Source: an uncultured Acidobacteriaceae bacterium (GTDB taxonomy: Bacteria; Acidobacteriota; Terriglobia; Terriglobales; Acidobacteriaceae). From it: a stretch of 64,000 nucleotides of DNA. Below the pieces are notes generated by a model. The model was not told the origin of the DNA. It saw only the letters and a program-made list of their open reading frames with translations, and made no database searches. The stretch lies in the NCBI GenBank assembly GCA_963699405.1, contig CAVOTW010000031.1, positions 146,571-210,570 of the forward strand. The letters are read 5' to 3'. Below are positions 17,024 to 64,000 of this stretch, one piece after another. A program made the translations under genes and the position numbers. The first letter of the stretch is position 1, and each line of letters opens with the position of its first letter.

Positions 17024-18638
17024 CTAGCGCGGGATGTAATTGTCGAGCAGCGGAAGTATGTGCGACCCTAGTTTCATCATGCGGGCTTGGGCGGCATCGG
17101 GAGACTCGCCTTTGAACATCGGGGTCATCAGGCGCACCATTCCGCCGTCGCTGCGATTCCTGCGAATGGAGTCGGAAATCAGATAGTACTTGGACCACCA
17201 CTCGCTAGCCACCACCCGCCCATGCGCCTGAAACCAGTACAAGACCAGTTGCCGCTCGCCCGACTTTGAAACCACGTAGCGATTGACGGGAATAGTAGAT
17301 CCGTCAGGGCGGGGAAGCTGAATCACCTGCCGCACTGTCGGAATCCATCCCGCGCCCGGCAGGCAATGTTCTGGCGAATGGATCGTATCGCCTGCCTTTT
17401 GGGAAGAAAAATATACGATGTACAGATTGATCCAATTCTGCGACGGATCCGCGGCTTCGTAATCGCGCAGGAGGTACTCGGGATGTCCGAGGATATCAAG
17501 ATCATCCTGGCTGAGCGTGTCGTCGGTTCCGGTCCAACCATCAATCTGCGAGGGCAGGGAACTCAGGGGCTGGTGCGGAGGAATTGATCTCAGTGGTGGA
17601 ATGGGCCTGCAGACCTATGGCCGTTGCCAACATGGGCACGGCCACGATGCCAAAGCGAAGAGGCCCGCCCCGGATGGGAATCTCCCGAACGGCCCGCTCT
17701 TGGAGATGCTGAGGCGCGTCATTGCGCGGCGTCGCCTTTGGATTTGTGTTCGGAACCCAAATGAGCGAGATCAGGCGGTGTACAGCGAACAACATGATCA
17801 ACGCGACCGCGAAGATCAACATTCCCGAGAGGGCATGGTAAAAGCCCTCCGCTTGTTCAGCATGCCCGTACTGAACCAGCAAGCCGGTGCCAAAAACGCG
17901 GAAGCTGTTAGCCGCCACGGCGATAGGCACGGCTGCGACCGCGAGGACCACGCGCACCCACTTCCGAGGCTCCATGAGATAGCCGTAGATGATGGCCAGC
18001 GTCACCAGGGTAAGAAGCGACCGGATTCCGCTGCAGGCTTCCGCGACGTCCAACTGCATGGCAGCGAGGGTGAGCAAGTTCCCCTCTCGCAGCACGGGAA
18101 CGTGGACCAGTTCCAGTAGACCAAAGGCGAGTTTGGAAGCCAGCAACTGAAGCGGGAAAGTGACTCGATTGATGATCAGGGCGGGGATTGGGATCATCAA
18201 AATCAGAAAAGCCCACGGAAACAGCACGGCGCGAAAAAACGTCCATCCCTGAAACAGAATGATCAAGGCCGCCAGCAGAAGCAGCAGCGATACTCGCGGC
18301 AGAAAAATATCGGCACCCAAGACGCCCACAACCAGCAAGAACAGGCTCAGGTACGCCAGCGGAAGGCCCGTCCACGAAGGAGCGGATGCAATCGCCTGCA
18401 GGCGCTTGCGGTCTTGCCAGAGAACAAACAAGGCAAAGATCGGGACGAAGATCCCATGCTGGAAGTTCGGGTCGCTGCGGGGCCCGACCCATTGCAGGAA
18501 AAGGTGGGCGAGAATCGAAGCGTAAAGCCAGGCGAGGAGCAAAAGCAGCGCGATTCCCTGCCAACGGGGCAGGCGGGACGACCAACGATTCTCCCTGGTC
18601 GAGAGGAGTGGAACTGCCTCTGCGGAGTTACTCATCAT
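17024..18638 (-). pseudogene. Exosortase (XrtA-like) with C-terminal EpsI-family domain; one frameshift between the two parts
   Basis: ORF 17541-18638 is a multi-TM exosortase (LMIPIP, DVAEACSGIRSLLTL). My translation of the frame of ORF 17024-17335 stays open upstream to beyond 17600 and reads SLPSQIDGWTGTDDTLSQDDLDILGHPEYLLRDY...IHSPEHCLPGAGW...LVLYWFQAHGRVV, which is EpsI-like. The two frames meet at about 17575-17590. Confidence 0.85.
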
Positions 18639-19061
18639 GGCGCGCTTGCATTTGAGGATATGCGAAAATCAGCCTTCTCGCCAAGGAAAACGAACGCGTG
18701 GGCCCACCCTTCGGGTCATACGAAAGTGGAGGTTAATCACCCTAGATTACCGAAAGCCGGGAAAGTATTTTCGCATTTCCGCAACATCGTTCGCGGATTG
18801 ATAAAAATGGCAATTTTGGTGGCGTGCGACCTCTAAGTCATTGATTTTTCGTTAGGAAACGGGGTCAGAGTACCACCTTGGTTCTTTTTTCACCCGCCTG
18901 CTAGAATGCATTGATGTCATCCCCCACGGGTGCGAAAATTGGGCATCTTGGGGACCTATCTTGGGGCATCCGGATTACGACCTGTTAGCGCATGATGCCA
19001 TCGCAATGGAGCATTTCCCGGTTCTTGGCCCGCAGCGGGGCTGTACGGGGATAGCAATCTT

Positions 19062-19931
19062 ATGTTGAAACGCATCATTGCGGGAACCAAGCGTACATTT
19101 GGATTGAAGCCCGCCGGCCGTAATCTGACGGTCTTCCCCGACGATACTTTTCTTGTTTCCTATCCCAAGTCAGGGAATACGTGGTCGCGCTTTTTGATTG
19201 CGAATCTTCTTCGACCGCAGGAGAAGGTTGGTTTCTCGAACATTCACCAGATCATCCCCGGAATTGACGTGGTTCCCCATCGCGACATGCTGCGATTTCC
19301 GCGGCCGCGCATTATTAAGAGCCATCAGTACTTTGACCCGCGATATCAGCGGGTGGTTTACATCGTTCGCGATCCTCGGGATGTGGCGCTTTCGGAATAC
19401 CACGCTCAACGCAAGAGCAAGCGGATCGCCGACCATGCTCCGATCGAGGAGTTTGTCCGCCGGTTTCTAGCCGGCGAAAGCTGCGATTACAGTTCATGGC
19501 GTGAGCATGCAGCAAGCTGGCTCTCAACTCGTTATGGTCAGCCTGGATTCCTGCTGGTGCGCTACGAGGATATGTTGCAGGACACGTCGCGCGAGCTCTC
19601 CAGAATGGCTGGCTTCCTCGGGCTCCATCCGACAGCAGAGCTGATCGAGCAGGCAGTCTCCCGGAGTGGCGCGGACAAAATGCGAAAGCTGGAGAAATCT
19701 CAGGCCGATCTTTTCAATGCCACCAAGGACACACGCCAGGACATTCTGTTCGTCCGTAGCGCCAAAGCTGGTGGATGGCGTTCGGAGCTACCTGAGACCT
19801 GTATCTTGCAGATCGAGCAGGCGTGGGGACACCTGATCCGGTGGTTGGGATACGAAATGGTCACGGAAGAGAAGGGGAATACGGCCGAGCCCGCATTCCC
19901 GGTTTCGGCAGGGAACGGGCCTGGGCGATGA
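19062..19931 (+). CDS. PAPS-type sulfotransferase (Sulfotransfer_1-like)
   Basis: 5'-PSB loop SYPKSGNTWSRFL and 3'-PB motif YIVRDPRDVALS. Confidence 0.85.
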   Translation: MLKRIIAGTKRTFGLKPAGRNLTVFPDDTFLVSYPKSGNTWSRFLIANLLRPQEKVGFSNIHQIIPGIDVVPHRDMLRFPRPRIIKSHQYFDPRYQRVVYIVRDPRDVALSEYHAQRKSKRIADHAPIEEFVRRFLAGESCDYSSWREHAASWLSTRYGQPGFLLVRYEDMLQDTSRELSRMAGFLGLHPTAELIEQAVSRSGADKMRKLEKSQADLFNATKDTRQDILFVRSAKAGGWRSELPETCILQIEQAWGHLIRWLGYEMVTEEKGNTAEPAFPVSAGNGPGR

Positions 19932-20095
19932 CCGCCTGTGCTCTTCGTGCATTTGGCTTTTAGCTGAACGCTAAGAGCGTTATTTGAAGGGGTCTGGAAA
20001 CACATCGGACCATAGGAAAGTTCTTCATCCGACTGGTCTTCGCCAGCCCGGCCGAAAGAAGCCACTGTTTACGATATCGCGGCAACTGGGCGTGT

Positions 20096-21685
20096 ATGCA
20101 CAAGTTTGAAAAACGGCAAATCATCAAGAACGTAACGTCGAGTTGGTTTGCGCTGGGAACCAATATCTTAGTTGGACTCTTCCTGTCGCCGTTCATTCTC
20201 CACCGGCTGGGCGATTCCGCATTCGGCGTGTGGGTGCTGACTTTTTCAATAACGGGTTATTACGGCCTCTTCGATCTGGGAATCCGTTCTTCGATCGTTC
20301 GCTATGTTTCCAAACATCTAGCCACCGGGAGTAAGGAAGACCTCGCCAAGCTGATCAACACGGCGCTCTTCGGATACGGCTGTGTCGGGATGGTATCGCT
20401 GGTTGTAACCGCGGTCATGGCCACCTACGTGAACAGCTTGTTTAAGATTCCGCCCCAATTTCACTCGATCGCCCACCTACTGATCTGGATGGTCGGCGTT
20501 TCGGTGGCGCTTGGCTTTCCCCTGGGCGTCGTCGGCGGATTTCTGGAGGGTTTGCAGCGTTTCGAAGTTTTGAATCTCAGCACCGTGATCCAAACCCTTT
20601 TACGGGCGGCTTTGATCGTGCTGTCCCTGCGACATGGGATGGGGCTGCTGATGATCACCTTCATTACGGTCGCTCTGCCGATCCTTGCATCCATTGTTCG
20701 TGTGTTCATCGCGTTACACCTTTGTCCGGTTTTGTTTGGATGGAAATACATTGATCGATCGACTTTCCGTACGATCGTCCACTACAGCAGCACCACTTTC
20801 ATGATCATGGTCGCGGGCCGGCTCAAGTTTAAGACCGACGAACTCGTAATCGGCAGCATGATTTCGGCCGCGGCCATTACGTATTTCAATATTGGAGCGC
20901 GCATCGTCGATTATGCGGGCGGGGTCGTAAATTCGCTCGCGGGAAATTTTCTGCCCGTGGTCAGCGCGTCGGAAGCCACCGGGAATACAGGCCGTTTGCG
21001 CAGACTATTCGTGGCCGGCAACCGCCTCTGCGCGTTCACGATTTTCCCCATCACGGCCTCGCTTCTCATCCTGGGCAAGTCGGTCATCGAAGTGTGGGTG
21101 GGGAAGAAGTACATTGTCACCAGCTACCCCGTGCTCGTGATCATGATCATTCCTTCGACCATCATGTTCGCGCAAGCGGTGTCGGGACGAGTGCTGTTTG
21201 GAATGAGTAAACATCGCACTTGGGGCTGGGTGACGCTCATCGAAGGGGTTAGCAATCTGGGGCTCAGCATCTTTCTCGTGCCTTATTACGGAATCATCGG
21301 CGATGCACTCGGAACCGCAATACCGCTGACTTGTAGTTTTGTGCTCTTCATGCCGCGGCATCTGTGCCACTTGCTCGGAATCCGTCTCCGGACCTACCTG
21401 CGGGAAGCTTTCGTTCTGCCGCTTTTGATCGTCACGCCGATGGTGGCCGTACTTCTGCTGATGAAGAAATGGTTCATTCCGCACAACTACCGGCAACTCG
21501 CACTGCAACTGGCGATCGGAGGGACGGTTTACGGGGTGGGATTGCTCTGGCTGTATTCGACAAAAAGAATTCTGAAAACCGGGGAACTTGCAGCAAACCC
21601 GGAGGCCGAACTCCTCGAAAAAAAGAACGGGAAAAAGAAGATGAGCGACCCAGAGGTGAGTGTCGCGGAATACAGTGATCGATAA
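20096..21685 (+). CDS. Polysaccharide flippase (Wzx/MOP superfamily-like)
   Basis: 529-aa protein with roughly 12-14 hydrophobic segments. Its size and topology are typical of oligosaccharide flippases, and it is located in the EPS locus. Confidence 0.7.
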   Translation: MHKFEKRQIIKNVTSSWFALGTNILVGLFLSPFILHRLGDSAFGVWVLTFSITGYYGLFDLGIRSSIVRYVSKHLATGSKEDLAKLINTALFGYGCVGMVSLVVTAVMATYVNSLFKIPPQFHSIAHLLIWMVGVSVALGFPLGVVGGFLEGLQRFEVLNLSTVIQTLLRAALIVLSLRHGMGLLMITFITVALPILASIVRVFIALHLCPVLFGWKYIDRSTFRTIVHYSSTTFMIMVAGRLKFKTDELVIGSMISAAAITYFNIGARIVDYAGGVVNSLAGNFLPVVSASEATGNTGRLRRLFVAGNRLCAFTIFPITASLLILGKSVIEVWVGKKYIVTSYPVLVIMIIPSTIMFAQAVSGRVLFGMSKHRTWGWVTLIEGVSNLGLSIFLVPYYGIIGDALGTAIPLTCSFVLFMPRHLCHLLGIRLRTYLREAFVLPLLIVTPMVAVLLLMKKWFIPHNYRQLALQLAIGGTVYGVGLLWLYSTKRILKTGELAANPEAELLEKKNGKKKMSDPEVSVAEYSDR

Positions 21686-21739
21686 CTAGCTGTGAGAATT
21701 TTGGCAAGCCAGAGCTTTCGGCTCAAGGAAAGATCTCTT

Positions 21740-22645
21740 CTACTTCTTCTCAAAGTGGTTTCCGAAGTAGTAGATCCTGTGATGGGATTCTTTCAGCTCG
21801 GCGGCATTGAGCGTCAAATTCGCGCTATCGAGGCGACGAACATCGGCGTGATGGACCTTCTCCTGTTCATCTACCCATCCATCAACTGACTCCAAGCCCG
21901 ATCCGTCGGCTGTCAAGCCTTTGAGAAAATAGTGGGCCGGAACGATCGCCTCAGGATCATATTTCCGGACGATGGCATCCACTTCGGCGCGCGTGAGGAC
22001 GGTCTCAACCGGCAGAATGAGCACGTCAGCTTTTTTCAGATAACGGTCGAGAGAGGGATCGGGCACTGGTCGGTTGTCGCCCCAGACAACGATGCGCAAC
22101 CCTCCAGTCTCAATAATCTGAATCGCGTTATCGAGGTCTTTCGGGTTGTTGGGCGGACAAGTCTTGGCAATTGTATCCGCGGAACTTCGATCACATTGGT
22201 GCTTGTCGGCGAGGCCCGTAATTTCGATATCGCCGAGCTTAAACTGCCCAACCAGACGTTCGAGCACCACCAGTCCGTTCGGCCTCTCAACGGCATCGTG
22301 GTCGAAATGAGCGTGAGTTGAGAGAACTATGTCGACTCGGAGGGGCGGAAACTCGTTCAGGAACCACTTTGGGTAAAGGCCGGTTGGGTCATTCCGCCAC
22401 GGATCGGTAAGAACGGTCAAGCCGGACGGCGATGTGATCCGGAATGCATCGTGCCCGTAGAAATCGATCTTGACATTGCCGGGACGGGTCGGGTCGCCGC
22501 CGGCCTTCTGAATGGCGATTAGAGAATTATCATTCCATATGGAAGAAGAGGTAGCCGCAGGCGTCTCCACCTGCTGTGCGCGCGCGCCGAAGGTGAGCGC
22601 CGATATAACAGCCAAGACGATAACGGCGGACGTTTTCAGACGCAT
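21740..22645 (-). CDS. Secreted MBL-fold metallo-hydrolase
   Basis: Signal peptide MRLKTSAVIVLAVISALTFGARAQ (ATG 22645 inside ORF 21740-22771) and metal motif LSTHAHFDHD. Confidence 0.7.
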   Translation of the reverse strand: MRLKTSAVIVLAVISALTFGARAQQVETPAATSSSIWNDNSLIAIQKAGGDPTRPGNVKIDFYGHDAFRITSPSGLTVLTDPWRNDPTGLYPKWFLNEFPPLRVDIVLSTHAHFDHDAVERPNGLVVLERLVGQFKLGDIEITGLADKHQCDRSSADTIAKTCPPNNPKDLDNAIQIIETGGLRIVVWGDNRPVPDPSLDRYLKKADVLILPVETVLTRAEVDAIVRKYDPEAIVPAHYFLKGLTADGSGLESVDGWVDEQEKVHHADVRRLDSANLTLNAAELKESHHRIYYFGNHFEKK

Positions 22646-24995: not shown

Positions 24996-26636
24996 CTACT
25001 TCTTGTTTGTTTTTGCCTTTGCCTTTGTTCCAGTCAGACCAAAGATCTGCAATTGCTGGTTACTGGCCACGAACACCTGCCCGTTGGCCACGACGGGAAC
25101 CAAGTTGGCATTGCCGCCCGTATTCGGCCACGCGCCCGCAGTGGCTTCGAACAGCGTCTTCATCTTTTTTGTTCCAGAGTCCGGATTAAAGGCAAAAAGA
25201 CTGATTGCTTTGGTTGCTTTCGCAGGGTGAGACAATGCCCAAATGATGGGATTCGCGTTACCGCTCGACGAAATGGTGGTGAAGAATCCCGGGTCTTGGG
25301 TACCACCGGTAGTGACAGAGACTTTTGCTTTCGTCAAAGCTACCGTGGGGGACGTTTGCAGCTTCCAGACGATGGCCGTCCTGCCGCCGCTACTCACCAC
25401 CCTCCCGAATCCGTCTGCCGGATCGACGAAGTACGACTCGCCGCACCAGCAGCGGCCGACGGGGTAGCTGCCGAGCACATTGTTCGCGGTGGGCGAGTAA
25501 CCACCCAGACTGTCTTCGTTCATCAGGAACATAGTGCCGCTCTTGCCCGCAGCGACCGCCAGATGTGGCGTCGATCCTGTCTGATCGGGCAGAACCATTA
25601 CCCCGCCTGAACCGAAGTCCGAGTCCTTCTCATCCATGGTCGCTTGATTATCCGGGGTAAAAAGGTCGAGCACCGTGGTTAGCGTATTCGAAATCTTGAC
25701 CACACTTTCCTGAATGTTGGTGACGCCGTCATAGGTGCCGGATTCTGAGTTGCCGGTTACGAACAGGATGTTGCCCGCATCGTCGGCCGACGGTCCATAG
25801 CCTGACATCCAGATCGAGGAGAGAAAAAAGTTGTTGGGGCTGGTTGGCTGCTGGTCGTTGAGCTGGTTCGAGGGAAATGGCGCCAGCGAACCCGCTGTCC
25901 AACCCAGCAGCCAGCCCCGCGAGAGATTGACCGCCTTATCGCAGAAGCTGCCAAAGCCCGCATAAATGCTGCCATTGGCGAGCAACAACGCCGGGCGCTG
26001 CCGCTGATATTTCGCGTTGAAGTTGAAGGTTGTTCCATCTGTCAGCGTATGCGATGCGGCGACGACTTGCGGCGTCACCTTGTCGGTCAAACTTCCCAGA
26101 TCGAGCGCGTGCAGTGTGTAGGCAGGTGCGCTCATACCCTGGGTATAGGTCATGACATAGAGGGTGTTGCTGCTGGGGTCGATCACCGGCGTTGAAGTTA
26201 TCCCGACGTTGGGGCCATTGTTGGCGCATTTTCCGGGGAGGGATTGTTGCGACACTGGCGCCCCGAAATTCGGATTCAACAGCACCGTCCCGGTATGAAC
26301 ATCGATGGCATACACCGTGTCGTTTTCCGTCGCTACATAAACCACATCGTGCGTGCCCTGATAATTTCCGGCGGTGATCTGCACCCCCGGGATCACTAGT
26401 GGCTGCGCGTCCACCTGGTCGTCGAGTGCCACAGTTTGCAGCAGGCCGAACGTCGTCGGGCCGACGTTGGCGGGCGTCAGCACGGACTCATTCTGATTCC
26501 AGCCGGTGCGGTAGTTGTCGTAGTGGTACGTTGTGATCGCCGTCTGGCCAGCCGCGAGCAAGGCGCTCGTGCTGATGAGAACCAATACGGCAATTGCTGC
26601 CGCGCCGCCGATGCGGTAGTTGCAACGATTTGTCAT
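24996..26636 (-). CDS. Secreted PQQ-like beta-propeller repeat protein
   Basis: ATG 26636. Signal peptide MTNRCNYRIGGAAAIAVLVLISTSALLAAGQ. YHYDNYRTGWNQNESVLTPANV followed by repeated VYVAT/VYAID-type blades. Confidence 0.6.
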   Translation of the reverse strand: MTNRCNYRIGGAAAIAVLVLISTSALLAAGQTAITTYHYDNYRTGWNQNESVLTPANVGPTTFGLLQTVALDDQVDAQPLVIPGVQITAGNYQGTHDVVYVATENDTVYAIDVHTGTVLLNPNFGAPVSQQSLPGKCANNGPNVGITSTPVIDPSSNTLYVMTYTQGMSAPAYTLHALDLGSLTDKVTPQVVAASHTLTDGTTFNFNAKYQRQRPALLLANGSIYAGFGSFCDKAVNLSRGWLLGWTAGSLAPFPSNQLNDQQPTSPNNFFLSSIWMSGYGPSADDAGNILFVTGNSESGTYDGVTNIQESVVKISNTLTTVLDLFTPDNQATMDEKDSDFGSGGVMVLPDQTGSTPHLAVAAGKSGTMFLMNEDSLGGYSPTANNVLGSYPVGRCWCGESYFVDPADGFGRVVSSGGRTAIVWKLQTSPTVALTKAKVSVTTGGTQDPGFFTTISSSGNANPIIWALSHPAKATKAISLFAFNPDSGTKKMKTLFEATAGAWPNTGGNANLVPVVANGQVFVASNQQLQIFGLTGTKAKAKTNKK

Positions 26637-26757: not shown

Positions 26758-28056
26758 TCATGGTTCGGTGTGATTCGCCTTGGATTCTGACAAATGCCCA
26801 CTGTCGTTTTTCGTAGAAGAATTCTTTACCATGGACTGATTTGGAGGATGGTCCAGAATCTGAAAAAGCTTGTCGGCAGCGATCTGATTCCCCGTTGCGT
26901 TCAAATGCGCGATACCGCGGTATAGGGGAGCTTGTGTGTCATCCAAAATATCTCCGAGATAATACAAATCCGGGCGGTTGACTGCGCGGCACTCTTCGTA
27001 GGCCGCGCGATACACCGACTCCATGCCAGGAAATTTCTTGTTCAGCCGCCGGTTCAGGACTGCCTCATCCGGGGTCAGTTGCTTGTGGCCAACGGCCATA
27101 TTGGGATACCAGGCAAAGATGGGACGGAAGCCGTACTGTTTGGCCAAGAGGTCAATAATGTCCATGTTTTCCTGATAATTCTGCATAATGGCACGGGACC
27201 ATGTCTGCGCGTCAGTCTCAGAAACACTATTGCTGCTCTTCTGCTTGGGCGATACTCTAGCCGCGATGTTCTCCAAAAACCGATAAGTGTTGCTTTGACT
27301 GAGGTAGGAGAATCCTGATTTTTTCTCCGTGATCCAGCCCTCGAGATAGTTCTTGAAGTCGAGATAATTGCTGTGCACGTCCACTTTCTTGTTCTCGTAA
27401 GCAGTAAACGCCTCTGTGCCGCCGTCGTAAAACAAGACAGCATCCGGCTTGCGGTCCGCGTGCTTGAGTTCTTGAATTAGCTCGAAAAGCTCTTGCGTAT
27501 TGGCCCAGCCTTTTTCCCCGTAATTCACGATGCAGACTTGCTTGCCCGCCTTTTCGTAATCTGCCGCCACGAGCGATGGAATAGTTTCCGAGTCGGGACT
27601 GCCCCAGCCCCACATCACGGAATCTCCGAACATCCACACTGTGAAAGTCTTTCCATCGCAGTGATTGTGGAGAGTGCGCCGGATACCATCCGCGTCGATT
27701 GAAATCGCACTGCCGTTGAAGGGAGCTCGGCGCCATAGAACGTAGGGCTCGTATTGCACTTTCTGCGCGGGCTGCTGTTCTTTCCAATACTCGCGCTCTT
27801 CGGGAGTTCCTTGAACAACCGCGGCTTCGACTTCCGGGCCCATGCTGTGCTGATTCTCGATTCCACGCCTGTAGCTGAACAACTCCATGCCAACAATGAA
27901 AATCAACGCCAGGGTTACGGCTACGCATAGGCGCAGCAGGAAACTGCGCGCAACGGACCTGTAGCTGGTCGTGGGCGGTATCCCAGAGGATTCGGCTGTG
28001 CGTTCCCTTTCCGGTGAACCGATCATAGTTTTTGTGTTTCCTTCTACGTCCTTCAT
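26758..28056 (-). CDS. Membrane-anchored SGNH/DltD-like protein (paralog 1)
   Basis: N-terminal TM LLRLCVAVTLALIFIVGMELF and the GDS block TVWMFGDSVMWGWGSP. Colinear with 39333-40582. Start at ATG 28056 or 28026. Confidence 0.65.
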   Translation of the reverse strand: MKDVEGNTKTMIGSPERERTAESSGIPPTTSYRSVARSFLLRLCVAVTLALIFIVGMELFSYRRGIENQHSMGPEVEAAVVQGTPEEREYWKEQQPAQKVQYEPYVLWRRAPFNGSAISIDADGIRRTLHNHCDGKTFTVWMFGDSVMWGWGSPDSETIPSLVAADYEKAGKQVCIVNYGEKGWANTQELFELIQELKHADRKPDAVLFYDGGTEAFTAYENKKVDVHSNYLDFKNYLEGWITEKKSGFSYLSQSNTYRFLENIAARVSPKQKSSNSVSETDAQTWSRAIMQNYQENMDIIDLLAKQYGFRPIFAWYPNMAVGHKQLTPDEAVLNRRLNKKFPGMESVYRAAYEECRAVNRPDLYYLGDILDDTQAPLYRGIAHLNATGNQIAADKLFQILDHPPNQSMVKNSSTKNDSGHLSESKANHTEP

Positions 28057-34524: not shown

Positions 34525-35027
34525 GCGACGACTCCCGTTTGAAAAAGTGCCTGCCAAGGACTTGCAGCTGCGGAATTCCAGCTGTCCGGCGGAAAAATTG
34601 TACGTCAGCGGTGTAAAAAAAAATTGTATGCCTGCGGTATAAATTTGATGCAACTCAGAGGGGCACAGGTTTGCCTGTCCTCACGGCTGTTCTCGAAGGT
34701 CTCATTATTTTGGCGACCCGGAATCGGAGAAACGATGACCTGGGCAGGGTGCGGATTTGGTTGCCACTGGCTCGTTTACTATCAGCCGACCCCGGCCAAT
34801 CGATCGGGATCGACACGTCCCGGTTGGTGCAAGTATAGCATTATCAGCGACATAAGCCATGTCCTCAACGCCGCTAGAATAGCGTTTGTGGCGGAACTCC
34901 GGGGGATTGACAAACCAAACGGAATCGCTATTCTGGAAGCAAGTAAGGCAATTGGTACTTCCCCGCTAGGTGGCGAATCCCCTTCCTCACTCACCAGAAA
35001 AGGGAATTCCTTATCTCCGAGGGCGCT

Positions 35028-44426: not shown

Positions 44427-44464
44427 AGGAACGCAGTCGCGATAAGGATTTGCGGGTGAAGAGC

Positions 44465-53223: not shown

Positions 53224-54546
53224 ATGCTATCGGGAAGTCGTGCGTCTTTCCAGGCCGTCGACCCAACCAAGGGCGCGTTTTTCTGGCTGAGCGCATTTTT
53301 CCTGGTCTACTGCGCGCGGCCCGGAGACTGGACGCCTGGTCTATCGTTAATTCCACTCGCCAAGCTCACCGCGATCTTCGCCCTGTGGGGTCTGTTCCGA
53401 AGCATCGGGCGCACCAAGCGTACGATCAAGGATATTCCCAAGGAAGGCCGATTGCTGGTCACCATGATTGGTCTGCTCTTCTTGGGTGGATTTCTCTCAC
53501 CGGTCTGGAGGGGCGGCGCCGTTTCCCGGACCATCGAGTTTTCCAAAATTATCATCGCGTGGTCCCTGGTCTTCCTGCTCATCACCACTTTTGATCGCCT
53601 GCGCCGGATCATCTTCGTGCAGGCCGCCTCCGTCGTAGTGATTTGTATTGCCGCGTTGATTAAGGGCCACGATATTCCCCGGCTGAACGGCGCCATCGGC
53701 GGCCTCTATTCCAATCCGAATGATCTCGCCTTCGCCATCGTCCTGTCACTGCCCTTTGCCCTGGCTTTCATGGTCACAGCGAAAAACATGATGGCCAAAG
53801 CGGCCTGGGGTTTTGGAATCTTCGTCATGTTGATCACCATTTTCGAGACGGCATCCCGCGCCGGCTTTATTGACTTGGTGATCGCTGGCAGCGTGACTCT
53901 GTACTACTTCGCTATTAAAGGTAAGCGCACGTACCTTCTGGTGGCGACCGTCTTGCTTGGTGTCATGATCGCGGTTACCGTCGGCGGCAAACTCTACGAT
54001 CGCTTCGAAGCTTTGGAGGGCGATAGTACTTCAGAAGAAAACGCTTACGGATCTTACCAGGCCCGCATGTTCCTCATGCGGCGCGCGCTCGACGCCATTG
54101 AGAGCTACCCGATCCTCGGGATTGGCGTGCAGAACTTCCCCAACTATTCGCTGATCTGGCACGATGTCCACATGACCTACCTGCAGGTCGCCGCCGAAGG
54201 CGGCATTCCCGTGGCCATTATTTACCTGATGTTTTTCCGCTGTGCATTTGTGAACCTGAAAATCCTGCGGAAGAGGACCGATCTTGACCCCGACATCGTG
54301 CTCTTTGTCGGCGCTCTTACCAGTTCGCTCGTCGGCTTCGTCGTGGGAGCGCTGTTCGCGCCCGAGACATACCAGTACTTCCCTTATTTTGCCGTCGCAT
54401 TTACGGCAACGCTGTTGCAGACGATCAAAGAGCAAGATCGAGAAAAAGGCGCCGGCCCGGTGACCCCGCCACCGAAGAAGTCGCGCCATTTCCTGGAGGT
54501 TTATGCCGATCGCGACAGAACCGGTGCAGTCGCCCCTGTCCGCTGA
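53224..54546 (+). CDS. O-antigen ligase/polymerase-like membrane protein (Wzy_C type)
   Basis: About 10 or more TM segments, plus the periplasmic loop ETASRAGFIDLVIAG and SYPILGIGVQNF...H. The start is uncertain (ATG 53224 within ORF 53014-54546). Confidence 0.7.
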   Translation: MLSGSRASFQAVDPTKGAFFWLSAFFLVYCARPGDWTPGLSLIPLAKLTAIFALWGLFRSIGRTKRTIKDIPKEGRLLVTMIGLLFLGGFLSPVWRGGAVSRTIEFSKIIIAWSLVFLLITTFDRLRRIIFVQAASVVVICIAALIKGHDIPRLNGAIGGLYSNPNDLAFAIVLSLPFALAFMVTAKNMMAKAAWGFGIFVMLITIFETASRAGFIDLVIAGSVTLYYFAIKGKRTYLLVATVLLGVMIAVTVGGKLYDRFEALEGDSTSEENAYGSYQARMFLMRRALDAIESYPILGIGVQNFPNYSLIWHDVHMTYLQVAAEGGIPVAIIYLMFFRCAFVNLKILRKRTDLDPDIVLFVGALTSSLVGFVVGALFAPETYQYFPYFAVAFTATLLQTIKEQDREKGAGPVTPPPKKSRHFLEVYADRDRTGAVAPVR

Positions 54547-55511
54547 CTTGCAGGCAATTCTGCGTTGCCTGAGCTGTGGCTCGAAGCTCGATAGCGACGA
54601 CGCCGGAGGCTACGTGTGCCCGGCGTGCAAGCGGGCCTATCCCAACGTAAACGGCATCGCGCGCTTCGTCGATGCCCAGCACTACGCCGCGAGCTTTGGT
54701 TTTCAGTGGCATCGCTATCAGAAAACCCAACTCGATCACGATGAGGTTCGCGAGTCCGAGCACAACTTCCGCATGAAGACGGCGCTGCGGCCCGAGGAAC
54801 TCGCCGGAAAACTCGTGCTCGATGTCGGTTGCGGTATGGGCCGCTTTGCCGAAGTCGCCACCCGCTGGGGAGCACGCGTGGTTGGCATCGATCTCAGTGC
54901 TGCCGCCGAAGTCGCCGCCAAGAATCTGGCCGACCGCGATTTCATTGCGTTTCAGGCGGATGTGTTCGCGCTGCCCTTTGCTCCCGAAAGCTTCGACGTC
55001 ATTTACAGCGTCGGCGTGCTCCATCACACGCCGGACTGCGAGGCTGCCGTCAAGACCGCTCGGCAAATATCTGAAGCCTGGCGGCATTCTGGCCGTGTGG
55101 CTCTATAGCGGATACAACAAGTGGTACCGCTTCAGCGATTTCTGGCGGCGCTACACGCACAGGATGAAACCGGAAACGCTGCACAGCATCCTGAAAGTTG
55201 CCGTGCCGGTTTTCTACAACACGCAGCAGGTATTGAAGAAAGTGCCGATCGTGGGGCGTCCGGCGGCGGGCTTGGTTCATCACGTTTTTCCCGTGAATCG
55301 GCAGAAGAATCCGGAAAACCGGATGCTCGATACCTTCGATTGGTACTCGCCGAAGTATCAGTCCAAGCACACTTATGAGCAGGTTTTCCGCTGGTACGAA
55401 GCGATGGGAATGGGCGACATGCGAATTGGGGAATTCGCCATCGCGGTTCGCGGGAGAAAACCCCTGACAGGGGCGGGATCGGCAAAAGTGGGGAATTCGC
55501 AGAATAGCTGA
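54503..55511 (+). pseudogene. Class I SAM-dependent methyltransferase with N-terminal zinc ribbon; one frameshift
   Basis: LRCLSCGSKLD...YVCPACKRAY (Trm112-like ribbon), motif I VLDVGCGMGRF and VIYSVGVLHHTPD, then LGKYLKPGGILAVWLY in ORF 54822-55511. The junction is at about 55050-55062. Confidence 0.75.
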
Positions 55512-55625: not shown

Positions 55626-57602
55626 ATGTGTGGGATCGCAGGGGTCGTCAGCGCAACGCGGGAGAGCAACATCACCGAAGCTCTCGTGCGTCACATGTGC
55701 AACCAGATCACGTACCGTGGTCCCGACGACGAGGGCATTTACGTCGCCGATGGCGCTGGCCTCGGCATGCGCCGCCTCTCCATCATCGATCTCTCCGGTG
55801 GTCATCAGCCGGTTTTCAACGAAGATCGCAGCGCTTGGATCGTCTACAACGGCGAAGTCTACAATTTTCCCGAGCTGCGGCCCGAACTCGAAAGCCGCGG
55901 CCATCGCTTCTACACCAAGACCGACACCGAAGTCATCATCCATCTCTACGAAGAGATGGGCGCGGACTGCGTCACCAAGCTGCGCGGCATGTTCGGGCTC
56001 GCCATCTACGACAAGACCAAGCGCAAACTGATTCTCGCCCGCGACCGCCTAGGCAAAAAGCCCTTACATTACGCACTGCATAACGGCAACCTGTATTTCG
56101 GATCGGAGATTAAAAGCATCTTGGCCGTAGCTCCGGAACTGGCCGAGGTCAACTCGCAAGGCCTGCTCGAATATCTTTACTACGGCTACGTGCCGGAGCC
56201 GATTACCGCTTTTACGGGTATTCACAAACTGCCATCCGGACACTTGCTCGAATTCGAAAACGGCGAAATCCGCATCCGCCAGTATTGGGATCTCCCGCAA
56301 TACAACACGCATTCGCCGAAAAGCGAAGAAGAGTGCTTGGAAGAACTGGAGCATCGTCTCTTCGAAGCGACGAAGATCCGGCTGATCTCCGACGTGCCGC
56401 TCGGCGCATTTCTGAGCGGCGGCACCGACTCCTCGATTATAGTCGCGCTTATGGCCCGCGCCAGTTCCGGCCCAGTCAAGACTTTCTCCATCGGCTTCAA
56501 GCACGATGATTTCAACGAGGCCGACTACGCGCGCATCGTTGCGAAGAAATTCGAGCACCGATCACCACGAGATGATTCTCGAGCCCGACGTGGTCGCAGA
56601 CCGTCGAGCACTTGACGTCATCGCTCGAAGAACCCTTCGGCGACTCCTCCATGCTGCCCACGTATTACGTTTCGCAGATGGCGCGCCAGCACGTGACCGT
56701 TGCGCTCTCCGGCGACGGCGGCGACGAAATGTTTGCCGGATACGACCGCTATCGCATTCATGCCGATCGCCAGATCTTCGAGAAAATTCCCGGCTGGGCG
56801 CGCAAATTTTATCGCGACCAGGTTTTTCCCCGCCTGCCCAACAGCTTGCAGGGGCGCAAACTGAGCTACAACATCACGCTGCCGTGGCAGGAACGCTACG
56901 TGGATGGCCTCTCGTTCCTGCCGGCCTTCGAGCGCGACACGCCGCTGCTCTCCGACGATTTCCGCGCCATCCTCGCCCGCAGCGACGATCCCGCCAATGT
57001 TCTGCGCCGCCGCTTTGCCGCTGCGCCCGCGAAAGATCCGGTCAGCGAGATTCTCTACGTCGACACGAAGACCTATATGGTCGATGACATTCTCGCGAAG
57101 GTCGACCGCATGAGCATGTTGAACTCGCTCGAAGTTCGCGTGCCGATTCTCGACCACGTTTTCGTCGAGTGGGTCGCCGGCCTCGCGCCCGAGTGGAAGC
57201 TGCGCGGCAAACAGCAAAAATATATTCTGCGCAAACTAGCCGAGCGCATCGGCGTGCCCGCGCGAAGTGCTCTACCGCCAGAAGCAGGGATTCTCTCTGC
57301 CGCTCGTCCACTGGATGCGCAACGAACTCAAAGATATGTTGATGGTGCTGGTCGAACCGCGAACCCTCGAACGCGGATACTTCCAGGCGAGCGGCGTGCG
57401 CAAGCTTATGGACGACCATCTTCTGCGCGGCAAAACCATGACCGGCCGCCTCTGGCGCCTGCTGATGTTCGAACTCTGGCACCGCAACTTCCTCGAGAAA
57501 TACGTCAAGCCCGCCGGCTTGTTCTCGCTCCCCGTAGTCGCCGATTCCCGGAGAACAGTGCCCGCCGCTCCCGTGTTAGCATCGGCCCCGGTAGGAGAAT
57601 GA
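55626..57602 (+). pseudogene. asnB: Asparagine synthase (glutamine-hydrolysing)-like amidotransferase of EPS loci; three frameshifts
   Basis: N-terminal nucleophile MCGIAG and RGPDDEG. PP-loop FLSGGTDSS. TDHHEMILEPDVV only in the frame of ORF 56506. SSLEEPFGDSSMLP...LSGDGGDEMFAGY in ORF 56612. YRQKQGFSLPLVHW in ORF 57267-57602. Junctions lie at about 56553-56558, about 56596 and about 57258. Confidence 0.85.
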
Positions 57603-59895: not shown

Positions 59896-60696
59896 TTACT
59901 TCACCGCACGCACGCACGAGAGTTGGTCGGACGCGATCCAGTTGATCAATCCATTGCGGGCAAACCGATCGCTGGCGCGGCAGAATCCTCCTTGCGGAAA
60001 GAACCGTTCCACGCCGTACCATCCCCAGGAATGACAAACCCAGTCCTCGAGTTCCAATCCGTGCGAGCGCATGAGCTTTACCCAAGGCCCGCGGCGATAT
60101 CGCCGATGCTGAACTTTCGGGTAAGGCTGGGCGGGACGCAACTCGCCTCCGAACAAGCGTCGCACTGCGCCGATCACTGGACGAACCATGAACCGTGTGC
60201 GAACCAAGGCACGATCCCCATAGAAAAAGGGACAAATACTGCTCGGAGTCGTAATCACAGCGTGACCGCCCGGTTTCAGCACGCGCCACATCTCGCGGAG
60301 CGCCGGATCGTCCGAGCCTAGATACTCCATGACGCCCAGGCAAACGATGCCGTCGAAGGTGTTGTCGGGGAAAGGAATCTTTTCAATGTCGGCGGCCTGA
60401 AAGCGCTCAGGATTGTAGTGCTGCCGAGCGTAGTCGATCATTCCTTCCGACAAGTCGGTGCCCCAAGTGTCATAGCCGCGGCGAGCCAATTCGGCGGCCA
60501 AGTGTCCAGTGCCGCAGCCGACGTCCAGAATCTTGGATCCTGCGGGCAGCTTCGCTTCGATCATCTCGATCGCAAAGCGCCTACGCGAGACGAGGTTTTG
60601 CGCGGTAAGGTTGGCGGGTTTCGGGTTCTCGTAGAAGCGAGCCCAGTCGTCTACAGTTTGCGTAAACAGCTCGTTAACTTGCTCTTTAGAACTCAC
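59896..60696 (-). CDS. Class I SAM-dependent methyltransferase
   Basis: Motif I ILDVGCGTGHLAAELARRG, post-I WGTDLSEGMI and FDGIVCLGVMEYL. Confidence 0.8.
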   Translation of the reverse strand: MSSKEQVNELFTQTVDDWARFYENPKPANLTAQNLVSRRRFAIEMIEAKLPAGSKILDVGCGTGHLAAELARRGYDTWGTDLSEGMIDYARQHYNPERFQAADIEKIPFPDNTFDGIVCLGVMEYLGSDDPALREMWRVLKPGGHAVITTPSSICPFFYGDRALVRTRFMVRPVIGAVRRLFGGELRPAQPYPKVQHRRYRRGPWVKLMRSHGLELEDWVCHSWGWYGVERFFPQGGFCRASDRFARNGLINWIASDQLSCVRAVK

Positions 60697-60759: not shown

Positions 60760-61839
60760 ATGCTATCATGGGTTTTTAACGCGTCTTTTCTCCGCATTTT
60801 GGGGCCTGGGGGACTGAGAGTGCTGAGGTCTAAATCCAAGCGCTGGTTTAAGAAAGCGCTGGTCCGCAGTAACATTCTCCGGGCGGCTAGCCGCCTTTCG
60901 AGTCCCACCGCCGTCATTCTGTCGTACCACTCCATTGTTGAAGACACGCAGACTACCGACCACATTCTGGGAATTTCTCGCGACCGCGCCAGCTTCGAGG
61001 CGCACATGGAGACCTTGGCCAGGAAATTTTCCCCTGTAACCGTCGAGGCCGTTGCCCAATTTGCCAAGTGCGGCCAGAAGCTTCCGCCCCACGCGGTGGC
61101 TGTGACCTTTGACGACGGTTTTGCCGACAACTACGAAGTAGCGCTGCCTATTCTCAGTCGCTACGGCATCCCCGCAACTTTCTACATTATGGTCGATGCC
61201 GTCGAAAACGGAATGTTACCGTGGTACTGTCGGCTTCGTTTCGCGTTTAACACGACCAAAAAGCGCGAGTGGAGCGACCCGGAACGAAACCAAACGTACC
61301 CTCTGGCTTCGCCTGAGCAGCGCAAGACGGCGCTGACTGCGGCTTGGGAGATCGGCGCCAGATTGACGGGAGCTGTGCAGCAGGAATTTATTGGCCGCGT
61401 CGAAAAGGCGCTGGAGATTGACCCGGCCTTCGTCAACGCCCACGCTCCCCACGGATTCATGCTGGACTGGGAACAGGTTCGAGGCTTGAAAAAGGCGGGG
61501 CATACGATTGGGGCGCATACGCTTTCGCATCCCAATGTTGCGCAGGTCAGTGCCAGCGAAGCGCGCTCGGAGATTGCCGGCTCCAAGAAGAGGCTCGAGC
61601 AGGAAATCGGCGAACCCATCGAACATTTTTCCTATCCGCATCCGGCGCTCAATCCGCAGTGGTCGAAGCAGACGCTGGAGATTACGCGGGAAGCGGGATT
61701 CAAGTCGGCTGCGTTGACTACTTGCGGGCCGGTGCGCAAGGGAGACGAGCCGCTCGCGCTCAAACGGATCTACACTCCTGCGGATTTGAATCAATTCACC
61801 TGGAATTTGCAGTGTACTTTTCTGGGGCGATCGGTCTAG
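60760..61839 (+). CDS. Polysaccharide deacetylase (CE4/NodB homology)
   Basis: AVTFDDGFADNYEVALPILSRYGIPATFYI (the TFDDG motif), GHTIGAHTLSHP and FSYPH. Start at ATG 60760 inside ORF 60418-61839, because the upstream part overlaps the methyltransferase on the other strand. Confidence 0.8.
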   Translation: MLSWVFNASFLRILGPGGLRVLRSKSKRWFKKALVRSNILRAASRLSSPTAVILSYHSIVEDTQTTDHILGISRDRASFEAHMETLARKFSPVTVEAVAQFAKCGQKLPPHAVAVTFDDGFADNYEVALPILSRYGIPATFYIMVDAVENGMLPWYCRLRFAFNTTKKREWSDPERNQTYPLASPEQRKTALTAAWEIGARLTGAVQQEFIGRVEKALEIDPAFVNAHAPHGFMLDWEQVRGLKKAGHTIGAHTLSHPNVAQVSASEARSEIAGSKKRLEQEIGEPIEHFSYPHPALNPQWSKQTLEITREAGFKSAALTTCGPVRKGDEPLALKRIYTPADLNQFTWNLQCTFLGRSV

Positions 61840-61967
61840 TTGGGCGTAGACCTTTGGCGAGGGCCGAAGGTGAGAGGGATTTTGGTGCCTCCAATTCGGC
61901 TGGTGTGACGCCTGATTCGAACAGTTGTATGGAAACCCGGTCGCTGTGCGAGCATAATTTCAACAAC

Positions 61968-63317: not shown

Positions 63318-63385
63318 TGGTTGGCGAGAAGTCGCGATAAAGCCCATCGACCCCACCAACAAAGGAGCCACGTCGCCTGTGAGGT

Positions 63386-63469
63386 TGGTGCCCGGAACAG
63401 GACTTGAACCGACCCAGAACTGTTCCTCGGGTGGAAAAACTTTATCCACTTTTGCCACGGCACTCGGGC
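63386..63469 (-). other. Degenerate tRNA-like element (intact 3' T-loop/acceptor/CCA; no canonical cloverleaf)
   Basis: The revcomp of 63386-63410 is GGTTCAAGTCCTGTTCCGGGCACCA, i.e. T-loop TTCAAGT, 3' acceptor strand, discriminator A and CCA. The 5' end GCCCGAG (63469-63463) pairs with it for only 5 bp. I could not draw a proper D arm or a 7-nt anticodon loop. Confidence 0.3.
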
Positions 63470-63654
63470 CTGACGAAGCTGCGCTTCGCAATGATACCTG
63501 TAACCTATTGCAAATAATGATGTTATACTGGTCCCTGAAGGCCGCGAACCCGTCCAATGGAAAGCGACTTGCACTCCACTCCGGGGGCGAACCTCGCCAG
63601 CAAGATTCCCTAATAGTATTGGCAAGTGGTTGACCTTGAGCGACTGGGAGACCG

Positions 63655-64000
63655 ATGAAGCTTCACCAGATTGATTCGAAAACAGCCGACTGGAAGCTCC
63701 TGGACAGCTTCGAAGATCGCACCGTCTTTCAGACGCGTGCGTGGCTGCAATTTGTCGCCGAGGCGCAGGGCGCTACTCCGGTGCTGGCGGAGGCGCGCGA
63801 GGGAAGCGATGTCGCCGGATACTTTACCGGGCTGACGTTTTCGAAGTTCGGCATGAAGGTGCTGGGCAGTTCTTTTCCCGGCTGGACTACTCCTTACATG
63901 GGGTTCAATCTGAAGCCCGGAGCGTCTCGCCGCGCGGCACTCGAAGCGCTGGAGAAATTTGCCTGGGATCAATTGAAATGTCTGCATCTGGAAGTCTCCG
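63655..64000 (+). CDS. FemAB-family (GNAT-fold) PEP-CTERM-locus-associated protein, 5' part (runs off the window end)
   Basis: Own translation from ATG 63655: MKLHQIDSKTADWKLLDSFEDRTVFQTRAWLQFVAEAQGATPVLAEAREGSDVAGYFTGLTFSKFGMKVLGSSFPGWTTPYMGFNL... It is open to the window end. FQTRAWL...GYF is the pattern of FemAB-like EPS-locus proteins. Confidence 0.55.
   Translation, partial: MKLHQIDSKTADWKLLDSFEDRTVFQTRAWLQFVAEAQGATPVLAEAREGSDVAGYFTGLTFSKFGMKVLGSSFPGWTTPYMGFNLKPGASRRAALEALEKFAWDQLKCLHLEVS

Follow-up and report, generated by a model that had tools for sequence, protein, structure and literature searches.

The 64-kb window analysed here (64,000 nucleotides of contig CAVOTW010000031.1 from an uncultured Acidobacteriaceae bacterium) carries, from position 17024 onwards, an exosortase-linked locus of the Wzx/Wzy type for an extracellular polysaccharide (EPS). 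An earlier annotation made from the sequence alone, referred to here as the original prediction, had described an EPS locus with additional genes for sulfation, carrier-protein acylation, methylation, amidation and deacetylation, and this description was supported. The core of the locus belongs to a known exosortase-linked kind; what appears to be new is its acylation module, best described as a Dlt-like donor side joined to a PatA-like architecture. On the simplest reading of the gene neighbourhoods, the locus would be a lineage-specific fusion of two separately conserved units. We tentatively propose that peat and soil Acidobacteriota share an undescribed acylation system, in which a carrier-fed membrane-bound O-acyltransferase (MBOAT) with its own DltX-type shuttle, together with an SGNH-fold protein, would attach a small amino acid in ester linkage to a sulfated Wzx/Wzy polysaccharide.

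Gene identities were obtained from hidden Markov model (HMM) scans of the window with NCBIfam and Pfam, supplemented by precomputed Pfam assignments on the near-identical contigs L001, L002, L004 and L091. Plain open reading frame (ORF) calling by codon usage left large gaps, the cause of which was frame breaks; the gene map is a maximum-scoring-segment frame map from codon usage in which fragments were then joined, and the annotation uses these joined fragments. The acylation module comprises the following genes:

26758..28026, minus strand: membrane-anchored SGNH-fold protein, paralog a; AlphaFold2 (AF2) model with an N-terminal transmembrane helix and SGNH core
37278..37559, plus strand: DltC-like carrier protein, 93 aa; DltC models 30 and 23 bits (cutoffs 68 and 52), PP-binding 18 bits (cutoff 20.8)
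37667..39216, minus strand: stand-alone amino-acid adenylation enzyme (DltA-like), three frame fragments; TIGR01733 323.5 bits (cutoff 317.4)
39333..40582, minus strand: membrane-anchored SGNH-fold protein, paralog b (cassette copy), two frame fragments
40677..42245, minus strand: MBOAT with a C-terminal extension ending VMYALF-stop, several frame fragments; TIGR04091 159 bits (cutoff 375)

DltB was the sole NCBIfam match of the MBOAT, and its only solved relatives were likewise DltB (8jem, 6bug). In the intact 521-aa copy of L004, a His-containing WH region and an EFWxRWHMSLSFW block aligned well with DltB, and a further extension of approximately 100 residues past the DltB-aligned core ended in GPVMYALF-stop. 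This extension looks, from its sequence, like a hydrophobic helix followed by a charged loop and a second hydrophobic helix. The hexapeptide (V, L or I, then MYALF) stood directly before the stop codon in all of the acidobacterial loci in which the MBOAT C-terminus was found (61/61), and it matches the FxYxxF 'acyl shuttle' motif with V, L or I at the first position in place of F. In DltX, this C-terminal motif contains an invariant Tyr; PatA auto-acetylates the equivalent Tyr and carries the same motif fused at its C-terminus on two extra helices, and the acyl-Tyr shuttle has been shown experimentally for both PatA and DltX (PMC12148441). MBOAT/SGNH pathways other than Dlt are described as having no carrier protein or DltX, and the shuttle fused to the MBOAT (PMC12148441). 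No separate DltX microprotein was found here, the shuttle motif being fused to the MBOAT C-terminus instead. The original prediction had recognised a complete Dlt-like set; its adenylation enzyme, carrier and MBOAT were upheld, whereas the module as a whole is, as judged from its sequences, a hybrid of a Dlt-like donor side and a PatA-type fused shuttle, since the carrier and adenylation enzyme stay adjacent while the MBOAT carries its own Tyr motif.

On the donor side, the NCBIfam matches of the carrier were to DltC models only, and its Ser motif reads GLVDSFALIE; it adjoins the adenylation enzyme in 57 of 63 acidobacterial loci. The latter enzyme scored 254 bits with the DltA equivalogs (cutoffs 476 and 560), and its nearest solved relatives were 8k4r, 6akd and 4oxi, all of them stand-alone adenylation proteins, with DltA ranking behind these. 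In the structure search 4oxi is annotated as an 'Enterobactin synthetase component F-related protein', and we take it to be AlmE, the adenylation enzyme of the Vibrio cholerae AlmEFG system for glycine addition to lipid A. In adenylation domains of non-ribosomal peptide synthetases, the Asp of the A4 motif binds the alpha-amino group. The A4 motif of the joined translation is FDLSVHD, the Asp of which would, by analogy, favour an amino-acid substrate.

The SGNH paralogs a and b are 54% identical, and the GDS Ser136 and His374 (paralog a numbering) were invariant. The AF2 model of the SGNH partner consists of a long N-terminal helix and then the SGNH core, with a mean confidence (pLDDT) of 66.7, and Foldseek searches with this model retrieved CgnD, TesA and acetyl-xylan esterases; no DltD sequence match to the SGNH proteins was obtained in the HMM scans. 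Both had originally been labelled DltD-like, and whilst the presence of two SGNH paralogs held, the label was downgraded to 'SGNH partner' because DltD was missing from the best structural matches. The model is thus consistent with a partner by role, rather than a demonstrated DltD family member.

A tail of the same kind was observed on a contig from a Candidatus Thiosymbion metagenome-assembled genome (MAG; L075), in which VIYTLF-stop lies beside a distant SGNH homolog (26% identity) and no adenylation or carrier homolog was detected. To judge from this sequence, a related fused-shuttle MBOAT may exist outside the Acidobacteriota. Distant SGNH homologs in general (26-32% identity; Planctomycetota, Omnitrophota, Thiosymbion and others) were not accompanied by homologs of the cassette MBOAT, adenylation enzyme or carrier at E<=1e-3, and were not counted toward the range of the cassette.

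The conservation of the module was assessed in 77 loci with 10-kb flanks from species-representative genomes, fetched with a profile built from the two SGNH paralogs and their homologs. The window proteins were mapped onto these loci by tblastn, so that the counts are lower bounds, the probes being window proteins. Acidobacteria accounted for 63 of the 77 loci, originating from Terriglobales, Acidobacteriaceae, Candidatus Sulfotelmatobacter, Candidatus Solibacter and Bryobacteraceae, and the carriers of the cassette found so far are all uncultured MAGs. The MBOAT, SGNH protein, adenylation enzyme and carrier were all present in 42 of the 47 acidobacterial loci with full flanks, and these 42 complete loci also contained a PHB-depolymerase-type esterase (41/42), a sulfotransferase (26/42) and a Wzx-type flippase (26/42). 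A PF04185 phosphoesterase was found in 32 of the 47 full-flank loci, and a homolog of one or other window phosphoesterase (PE1 or PE2) in 43 of the 63 acidobacterial loci. The usual order is a propeller gene and a family 4 glycosyltransferase (GT4), each variably present, then MBOAT, SGNH and adenylation enzyme; carrier and esterase; phosphoesterase; and Wzx and sulfotransferase.

Two distant cassettes, the SGNH proteins of which are 68-69% identical to that of the window, were checked by independent gene calls and Pfam. The first (L086) encodes AsnB, a heparinase II/III-like protein and a UDP-glucose dehydrogenase (the latter two within 3401-7174), GT4, MBOAT, SGNH, AMP-binding enzyme, carrier, Big_3_5, Wzx, three Sulfotransfer_1 proteins, a family 2 glycosyltransferase (GT2) and a CE4 deacetylase. 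The second (L089) has a Big_3_5/Esterase_PHB protein in the Big_3_5 position, with an extra Sulfotransfer_3 protein, epimerase and GFO/IDH oxidoreductase at 5027-8230. The genes at these positions in L086 and L089 are hints of a uronic-acid-containing, glycosaminoglycan-like sulfated polymer. Sulfotransferases and acylation genes also remained together in the rearranged loci L037 and L063. Because sulfotransferases, the Dlt-like set, esterase, phosphoesterase and Wzx remain linked despite several rearrangements across dozens of acidobacterial genomes, the genes for sulfation and acylation are, on gene-neighbourhood grounds, conserved with each other rather than randomly adjacent.

The same does not extend to the exosortase and the export core, which are encoded on either side of the inserted genes in the window:

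17024..18638, minus strand: exosortase with fused EpsI domain (XrtD-type), split here by an extra A at 17584
42762..43707, plus strand: sigma-54 enhancer-binding protein without receiver domain, two frame fragments; matches only the AAA+/HTH part of PrsR
43770..44426, plus strand: Wza-like exporter; TIGR03027 159.9 bits (cutoff 180), Poly_export / SLBB
44456..45870, plus strand: conserved secreted protein, about 470 aa, encoded between the Wza and Wzz genes, six frame fragments; signal peptide
45916..47508, plus strand: Wzz-type chain-length determinant (polysaccharide co-polymerase, PCP); TIGR03007 212.7 bits (cutoff 278.85)
47517..48470, plus strand: ExeA-like AAA ATPase; TIGR03015 304.7 bits (cutoff 324.5)
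48467..49370, plus strand: bacterial tyrosine kinase (BY-kinase)-like ATPase, two frame fragments; TIGR03018 130 bits (cutoff 231), TIGR01007 114 bits (cutoff 108)
49388..50764, plus strand: priming polyprenyl-phosphate sugar-phosphate transferase, frameshifted; C-terminal part TIGR03013 378.6 bits (cutoff 393), TIGR03025 317.6 bits (cutoff 295.6)
50761-51888, plus strand: GT2 (HMM scan)
51866-53147, plus strand: stp1-like GT4, frameshifted (HMM scan)
53014-54546, plus strand: Wzy_C / O-antigen-ligase-like polymerase candidate (HMM scan)
54503..55511, plus strand: S-adenosylmethionine (SAM)-dependent methyltransferase, frameshifted (HMM scan)
55626..57602, plus strand: AsnB-like glutamine amidotransferase, frameshifted; TIGR03108 397 bits for one half and 257 bits for the other (cutoff 817), TIGR01536 335 bits (cutoff 267)
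57607-58752, plus strand: GT4 (HMM scan)
58765-59881, plus strand: GT4, frameshifted (HMM scan)
59896..60696, minus strand: second SAM-dependent methyltransferase (HMM scan)
60820..61839, plus strand: CE4 polysaccharide deacetylase, start uncertain; Polysacc_deac_1 83.6 bits, PgaB-like matches
61905-63317 and 63655 to the window end (64000), plus strand: two ORFs with no family match in the HMM scans

In the more distant Terriglobales genomes, the exosortase abuts the regulator and core without an insert in three of the four examined. In these three (L083, L084 and L090; exosortase 71-73% identical), it is divergently adjacent to a receiver-less sigma-54 activator, past which follow Wza, a protein of about 480 aa, Wzz, ATPase, kinase-like ATPase, priming transferase and glycosyltransferases; on its far side lies YjeF in L083 and L084, and YjeF with TrkA in L090, as in the window. 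The exosortase of the fourth (L088) has no core beside it, and the contig carries a cassette at a distance of 43 kb (L088/L089). The cassette of the L032/L083 genome is 38 kb from its exosortase. The order of the window, namely exosortase, Wzx/sulfotransferase, hydrolases, sulfotransferases, acylation genes, regulator and core, recurs only in the close relatives L006/L062, L007, L008, L009/L060 and L091. The G+C content is 0.53-0.56 across 20-32 kb, versus 0.57-0.61 in the core and approximately 57% for the window overall.

On these neighbourhoods, conservation of the decorating modules does not reach to the exosortase or the export core, and the question of whether the inserted modules are conserved beside exosortases thus received a divided answer: they are conserved with one another, but core genes occurred within 10 kb of the cassette in only 5 of the 47 full-flank loci. 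The first unit would be an exosortase-linked export core conserved in Terriglobales, consisting of the XrtD-type exosortase-EpsI, the divergent sigma-54 activator, and Wza through CE4. The second would be the block of approximately 24 kb around the cassette, with MBOAT, SGNH, adenylation enzyme, carrier, esterase(s), phosphoesterase, Wzx and sulfotransferase(s), to which a second SGNH protein, three more sulfotransferases, a GT2 and further hydrolases would be lineage-specific additions. The simplest reading is that these 24 kb (18.7-42.6 kb), cassette and additions alike, came between exosortase and regulator in this lineage.

The predicted exosortase with an EpsI domain was confirmed by HMM, but its assignment to XrtA was not. 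The intact L001 copy scored 410.2 bits with the XrtD model TIGR04152 and the repaired window sequence 402.9 (cutoff 400), with the match of the L001 copy spanning positions 7-486 of the 486-position model; the XrtA model TIGR03109 reached 178.4 bits, below its cutoff of 208. The intact exosortase further scored 316 bits with XrtW (cutoff 425) and 118 bits with EpsI_fam. Exosortase homologs number in the thousands, and many of the best 120, at 67-100% identity, have been named XrtD by JGI or NCBI. By curated models the exosortase is therefore of the XrtD type and not XrtA, and the label 'classical XrtA' is unsupported at that level, as XrtD lies above its cutoff and XrtA below. The fused EpsI domain is a further likeness to the XrtD/VPLPA-CTERM family, from which the locus differs in that no VPLPA-CTERM client was seen in the window or beside homologous exosortases; the margin over the cutoff is also small. 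As originally predicted, no PEP-CTERM substrate was evident, a regex search of the ORFs of the window returning no PEP-CTERM-like tail other than in one spurious antisense ORF, and none was found beside the homologous exosortases. Very large ASH/Cep192_D4/HYDIN-type Ig-repeat proteins recur within a few kb of these exosortases (L083 19942-21596; L084 16441-19233; L088 4556-7555 and 16828-19665); the three that were checked (complete ORFs in L084 and L088) had no PEP-CTERM-like tail.

The remainder of the core largely matched expectation. HMM scans bore out the Wza-like exporter, Wzz/PCP, ExeA-like and BY-kinase-like ATPases and priming transferase, as well as two GT2 and three GT4 enzymes in the locus, the Wzy_C protein, two SAM methyltransferases, the AsnB-like protein and CE4. 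A FemAB-like gene (TIGR03019) could not be recovered, as neither the ORF at 61905-63317 nor any other tested ORF matched even at E<=10. The proposed 'OM barrel' at 44456-45870 has a signal peptide and no family match in the NCBIfam and Pfam scans; it occupies the same place in L083, L084 and L090 and may be an outer-membrane protein. A scan of the window for the sigma-54 promoter consensus gave 4 matches, against 5.3 expected by chance. For the Wzz protein, no identical sequence was retrieved by an exact look-up.

The genes between exosortase and acylation module are as follows:

19062..19931, plus strand: sulfotransferase ST1a (Sulfotransfer_1; Pfam on the L001 gene), PKSGNTW and RDPRD motifs
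20096..21685, plus strand: Wzx-type flippase; Polysacc_synt / Polysacc_synt_3, weak Wzx-like and MurJ matches
21740..22645, minus strand: secreted metallo-beta-lactamase (MBL)-fold protein (Lactamase_B_3), absent from the close relative L091
22707..23669, minus strand: secreted PHB-depolymerase-family esterase (EstA), signal peptide; NF050058 128 bits (cutoff 150), TIGR01840 78 bits
23771..24970, minus strand: secreted PF04185 phosphoesterase (PE1), signal peptide (Pfam/HMM scan)
24996..26636, minus strand: secreted all-beta propeller-like protein, 546 aa; weak PQQ_2 match only
28330..29367, minus strand: sulfotransferase ST2 (Sulfotransfer_2; precomputed Pfam on L002 and L091)
29417..30352, minus strand: sulfotransferase ST1b (Sulfotransfer_1), Pfam 114.6 bits
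30426..31292, minus strand: sulfotransferase ST1c (Sulfotransfer_1), Pfam 70.2 bits
31517..32560, plus strand: GT2 glycosyltransferase (HMM scan)
32632..34653, minus strand: secreted PF04185 phosphoesterase (PE2), signal peptide (HMM scan)
35028-36092 and 36165-37184, plus strand: tandem secreted PHB-depolymerase-family esterases; NF050058 123 and 124 bits

All four of the predicted sulfotransferases were thus retained, as three Sulfotransfer_1 proteins and one Sulfotransfer_2 protein. ST1a is the copy matched at approximately 50% identity by tblastn in most related cassette loci. The motifs PKSGNTW and RDPRD for binding of 3'-phosphoadenosine-5'-phosphosulfate (PAPS) were present in two of the three Sulfotransfer_1 proteins; in ST1c the corresponding motif is PGSGGQW, without the conserved Lys of the 5'-phosphosulfate-binding loop, and this enzyme may be inactive or functionally altered. 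Of the two sulfotransferases compared with solved structures, ST1b had PAPS-dependent cytosolic SULTs as its nearest relatives, and ST2 gave no significant match. None of the sulfotransferases has a signal peptide, which, along with the likeness of ST1b to cytosolic PAPS enzymes, fits sulfation of lipid-linked units before flipping. The Wzx at 20096-21685 is the only flippase recognised within the window.

Secreted hydrolase and propeller genes in this region number seven rather than the predicted eight, with three PHB-depolymerase-family proteins, two PF04185 proteins, one MBL-fold protein and one propeller-like protein. A further PHB-depolymerase-family paralog lies outside the locus at 7428-8999. 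It has a C-terminal sequence block in common with the three esterases of the locus and is a fusion with Big_3_5 Ig-like domains; the distant cassettes of L086 and L089 themselves include Big_3_5/esterase proteins. It is a reasonable guess from position that the esterases and phosphoesterases trim ester or phosphoester decorations. The AF2 model of the 546-aa protein (pLDDT 48) had PQQ dehydrogenases and BamB as its best fold matches, and its likeness to an eight-bladed propeller is suggestive of a propeller fold. This protein belongs to an abundant secreted acidobacterial family, of which over 6000 members were detected. Members from different genomes frequently share about 75% identity, two copies lie on a single 2.0-Mb contig, and some are fused to Big_3_5 domains.

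From the gene identities, conservation pattern and motifs described above, we lean towards a single Wzx/Wzy pathway, the product of which would be sulfated in the cytoplasm and esterified with aminoacyl groups in the periplasm by way of the carrier, MBOAT-Tyr and SGNH proteins; the substrates, the order of steps and the action of both units on one polymer are accordingly given here as proposals. The priming transferase and GT2/GT4 enzymes would build repeat units on undecaprenyl phosphate, and the PAPS-type sulfotransferases would sulfate these in the cytoplasm, where methylation and amidation may also occur. The cassette Wzx would then flip the units for polymerisation by the Wzy-like protein and export through PCP and Wza. 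In parallel, the adenylation enzyme would charge the carrier with a small alpha-amino acid, and the MBOAT would pass the aminoacyl group through the membrane to the Tyr in its C-terminal VMYALF tail. From there the group would move to the catalytic Ser of the membrane-anchored SGNH proteins, which would attach it to the polymer as an ester on the periplasmic side. Trimming or recycling of these esters would fall to the secreted esterases. This pathway and four alternatives to it were rated separately and are not mutually exclusive.

Several observations weigh against a single pathway. The carrier-protein matches fall short of the curated cutoffs, DltD was not among the 50 best Foldseek matches of the SGNH model, which was no closer to DltD than to generic SGNH esterases, and the model itself is only moderately confident. 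Substrates of the exosortase were not found in the window, nor were genes for PAPS synthesis. Should the frame breaks in 12 genes be real, this particular copy may be inactive. The cassette usually lies more than 10 kb from the export core, as counted above, and in two genomes lies 38-43 kb from the exosortase, so that it may serve another glycan and the adjacency seen here could be secondary. Taken further, cassette and exosortase-export core would act on different molecules, the insertion being neutral and confined to one lineage, and the cassette would target an O-antigen-like or capsular glycan, a lipopolysaccharide or a glycoprotein with polymerase and export genes elsewhere. This we consider unlikely, if deserving of serious thought. 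It would explain the 5 of 47 loci with nearby core genes, the exosortase and core without insert in L083, L084 and L090, the coreless exosortase of L088/L089 with its cassette 43 kb distant, and a cassette that brings its own Wzx, GT2, GT4, CE4 and, in places, AsnB. However, the cassette neighbourhoods inspected had no Wzy, PCP or Wza of their own and the core in the window has no recognisable flippase besides the cassette Wzx, whilst the composite order is kept in at least four species-level genomes and two further genomes hold both units on one contig within 38-43 kb. A different doubt concerns the donor, since the MBOAT-SGNH pair could be an ordinary O-acetyltransferase of the PatAB/AlgIJ type acting on acetyl-CoA, with adenylation enzyme and carrier serving another step, such as an N-acyl sugar or lipid. 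The PatA-type shuttle on an extra C-terminal extension, unlike DltB, the MBOAT score far under the DltB equivalog cutoff (159 versus 375) and an SGNH protein not DltD-like by fold ranking would all suit such an enzyme, but in 57-60 of the 63 acidobacterial loci the pair is accompanied on its flanks by adenylation enzyme and carrier, also through rearrangements, both solved structures and NCBIfam models relate the MBOAT to DltB only, and the only family matches of the carrier are DltC models, which together render this alternative rather improbable.

We also give little credence to a classical XrtA/PEP-CTERM EPS system, as described by Haft and colleagues, in which the decorations are accessory and the PEP-CTERM clients are encoded elsewhere. 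The gene cast for export and assembly is the same, in a similar order, and among the XrtA-system models compared (TIGR03109, TIGR03027, TIGR03007, TIGR03015, TIGR03018, TIGR03013, TIGR03087/8, TIGR03097 and TIGR03108) the corresponding model was the best match of each core protein, covering export, chain length, ATPase, TyrKin, EpsB_2, stp1/stp2, O-ligase and amidotransferase. Every one of these matches nevertheless fell below its curated cutoff, the further scores being 219 (cutoff 317) for stp1, 150 (409) for stp2, 66 (188) for O-ligase and 20 (276) for deacetylase, where frame breaks in several core proteins depress the scores; the exosortase passes XrtD and not XrtA (410 versus 400, and 178 versus 208), the regulator has no receiver domain, neither PrsK nor FemAB was seen in the window, and PEP-CTERM proteins were absent from it and from the neighbourhoods of homologous exosortases. 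It is similarly very unlikely that the window holds a decaying array of pseudogenes. From 17.5 to 59.9 kb, the codon-usage frame map revealed approximately 22 frame breaks affecting 12 genes, with gene pieces that abut in different frames, and the single break whose position could be fixed by comparison with a 99.9%-identical contig, the extra A at 17584 relative to L001, is not in a long homopolymer. Yet the pieces retain a strong coding signal, contain no in-frame stops and are 80-98% identical in protein sequence to relatives; their counterparts are intact in L001 (where the exosortase is whole at 536 aa), L004 and the k141-named contig L091; and L004 has frame breaks of its own in genes that are whole in the window. 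Beyond the locus, an extra C at 15342 relative to L001 joins the housekeeping pair of a TrkA-type K+ channel gene and YjeF (NAD(P)HX repair), which are separate genes in L001, L090 and L091, into an 870-aa ORF at 14355-16967, likely an assembly error. On account of the intact copies, the coding signal, the breaks particular to L004 and this indel outside the locus, the frame breaks are probably errors of consensus or assembly. A homopolymer check of indels against relatives with about 88% nucleotide identity was uninformative, the alignments being full of compensating gaps.

Contig L001 overlaps the window at 13769-25681 with 99.9% identity and contig L004 at 32869-46112 with 96.4%, both being metagenome contigs. 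The identity of L004 is near 100% across about 34.4-37.6 kb and roughly 95%, with many 1-nt indels, beyond about 37.6 kb; such a step points to a mosaic of strains, a recombination boundary or a consensus of chimeric origin. The closest relatives of the window are uncultured Terriglobales/Acidobacteriaceae MAGs with isolate names including SPRUCE, palsa, bog and MFD. Upstream of the locus, 1117-5518 holds what look like genes of a formate dehydrogenase, with molybdopterin oxidoreductase fragments, a 4Fe-4S dicluster subunit and a cytochrome b561-type subunit. Its catalytic subunit is apparently spread over several ORFs, again suggestive of frame errors. An Rce1-like CAAX-type intramembrane protease adjoins a CarboxypepD_reg-domain protein at 9048-11163, and the same pair is found at the exosortase flank in L091.

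Among known systems, the Dlt pathway for D-alanylation of teichoic acids in Firmicutes resembles the module in its stand-alone adenylation enzyme, the DltC-like Ser motif of its carrier, an MBOAT with only DltB as solved relatives, a membrane-anchored SGNH-fold partner and the logic of an acyl-Tyr shuttle. Unlike Dlt, the shuttle hexapeptide is here fused to the MBOAT with no separate DltX, every equivalog cutoff is missed, the SGNH protein is not specifically DltD-like, and the genes belong to a diderm acidobacterium that has no teichoic acids, where they lie among sulfotransferases, Wzx and glycosyltransferases. PatA/PatB, AlgI/AlgJ/AlgX and WssH/WssI share the pairing of a periplasmic SGNH protein with an MBOAT whose C-terminal extension ends in an xxYxxF shuttle, but these O-acetyltransferases use an acyl-CoA donor without adenylation enzyme or carrier (PMC12148441), both of which adjoin the pair in the acidobacterial gene contexts. 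The Vibrio cholerae AlmEFG system, the presumed source of 4oxi and thereby of one of the nearest solved structures to the adenylation enzyme, likewise aminoacylates a glycolipid or glycan of the diderm envelope in a carrier-dependent manner. To our knowledge, AlmG is not an MBOAT and AlmEFG has neither an SGNH partner nor a Tyr shuttle.

Clustered sulfotransferases have precedents in the synechan (xss) cluster of Synechocystis and in marine sulfated capsule clusters, where several PAPS-type sulfotransferases accompany Wzx/Wzy EPS genes (PMC8205485, PMC11641403, PMC11766843). The window contains a synechan-like gene set, with Wzx, Wzy-like, PCP and outer-membrane polysaccharide export (OPX) proteins and in-cluster PAPS-type sulfotransferases. 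The present locus differs in its phylum and in the presence of an exosortase and an aminoacylation module. The literature searched contained neither an acidobacterial EPS sulfotransferase cluster nor an exosortase combined with sulfotransferases in Acidobacteria, though an earlier description elsewhere is possible, and searches for XrtD returned nothing relevant.

Acidic peat and forest soils count Terriglobales among their dominant bacteria, and the extracellular polymers of this group influence the storage of carbon, the retention of water and the binding of metals. For the annotation of such loci, the exosortase type and the structure of cassette versus core should be recorded separately. 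The cassette joins a carrier protein and a fused shuttle, two mechanisms treated in the literature as alternatives, and the combination is notable because systems other than Dlt are stated to be without a carrier (PMC12148441). The hybrid architecture predicts aminoacyl transfer from the carrier to the VMYALF Tyr, and an MBOAT with a fused shuttle offers a natural single-polypeptide model of the DltB-DltX pair. If the proposal is true, the sequence would represent a mechanistic intermediate between the Dlt and PatAB/AlgI families, and a diderm would have a teichoic-acid-like means of tuning the charge of an anionic sulfated matrix.

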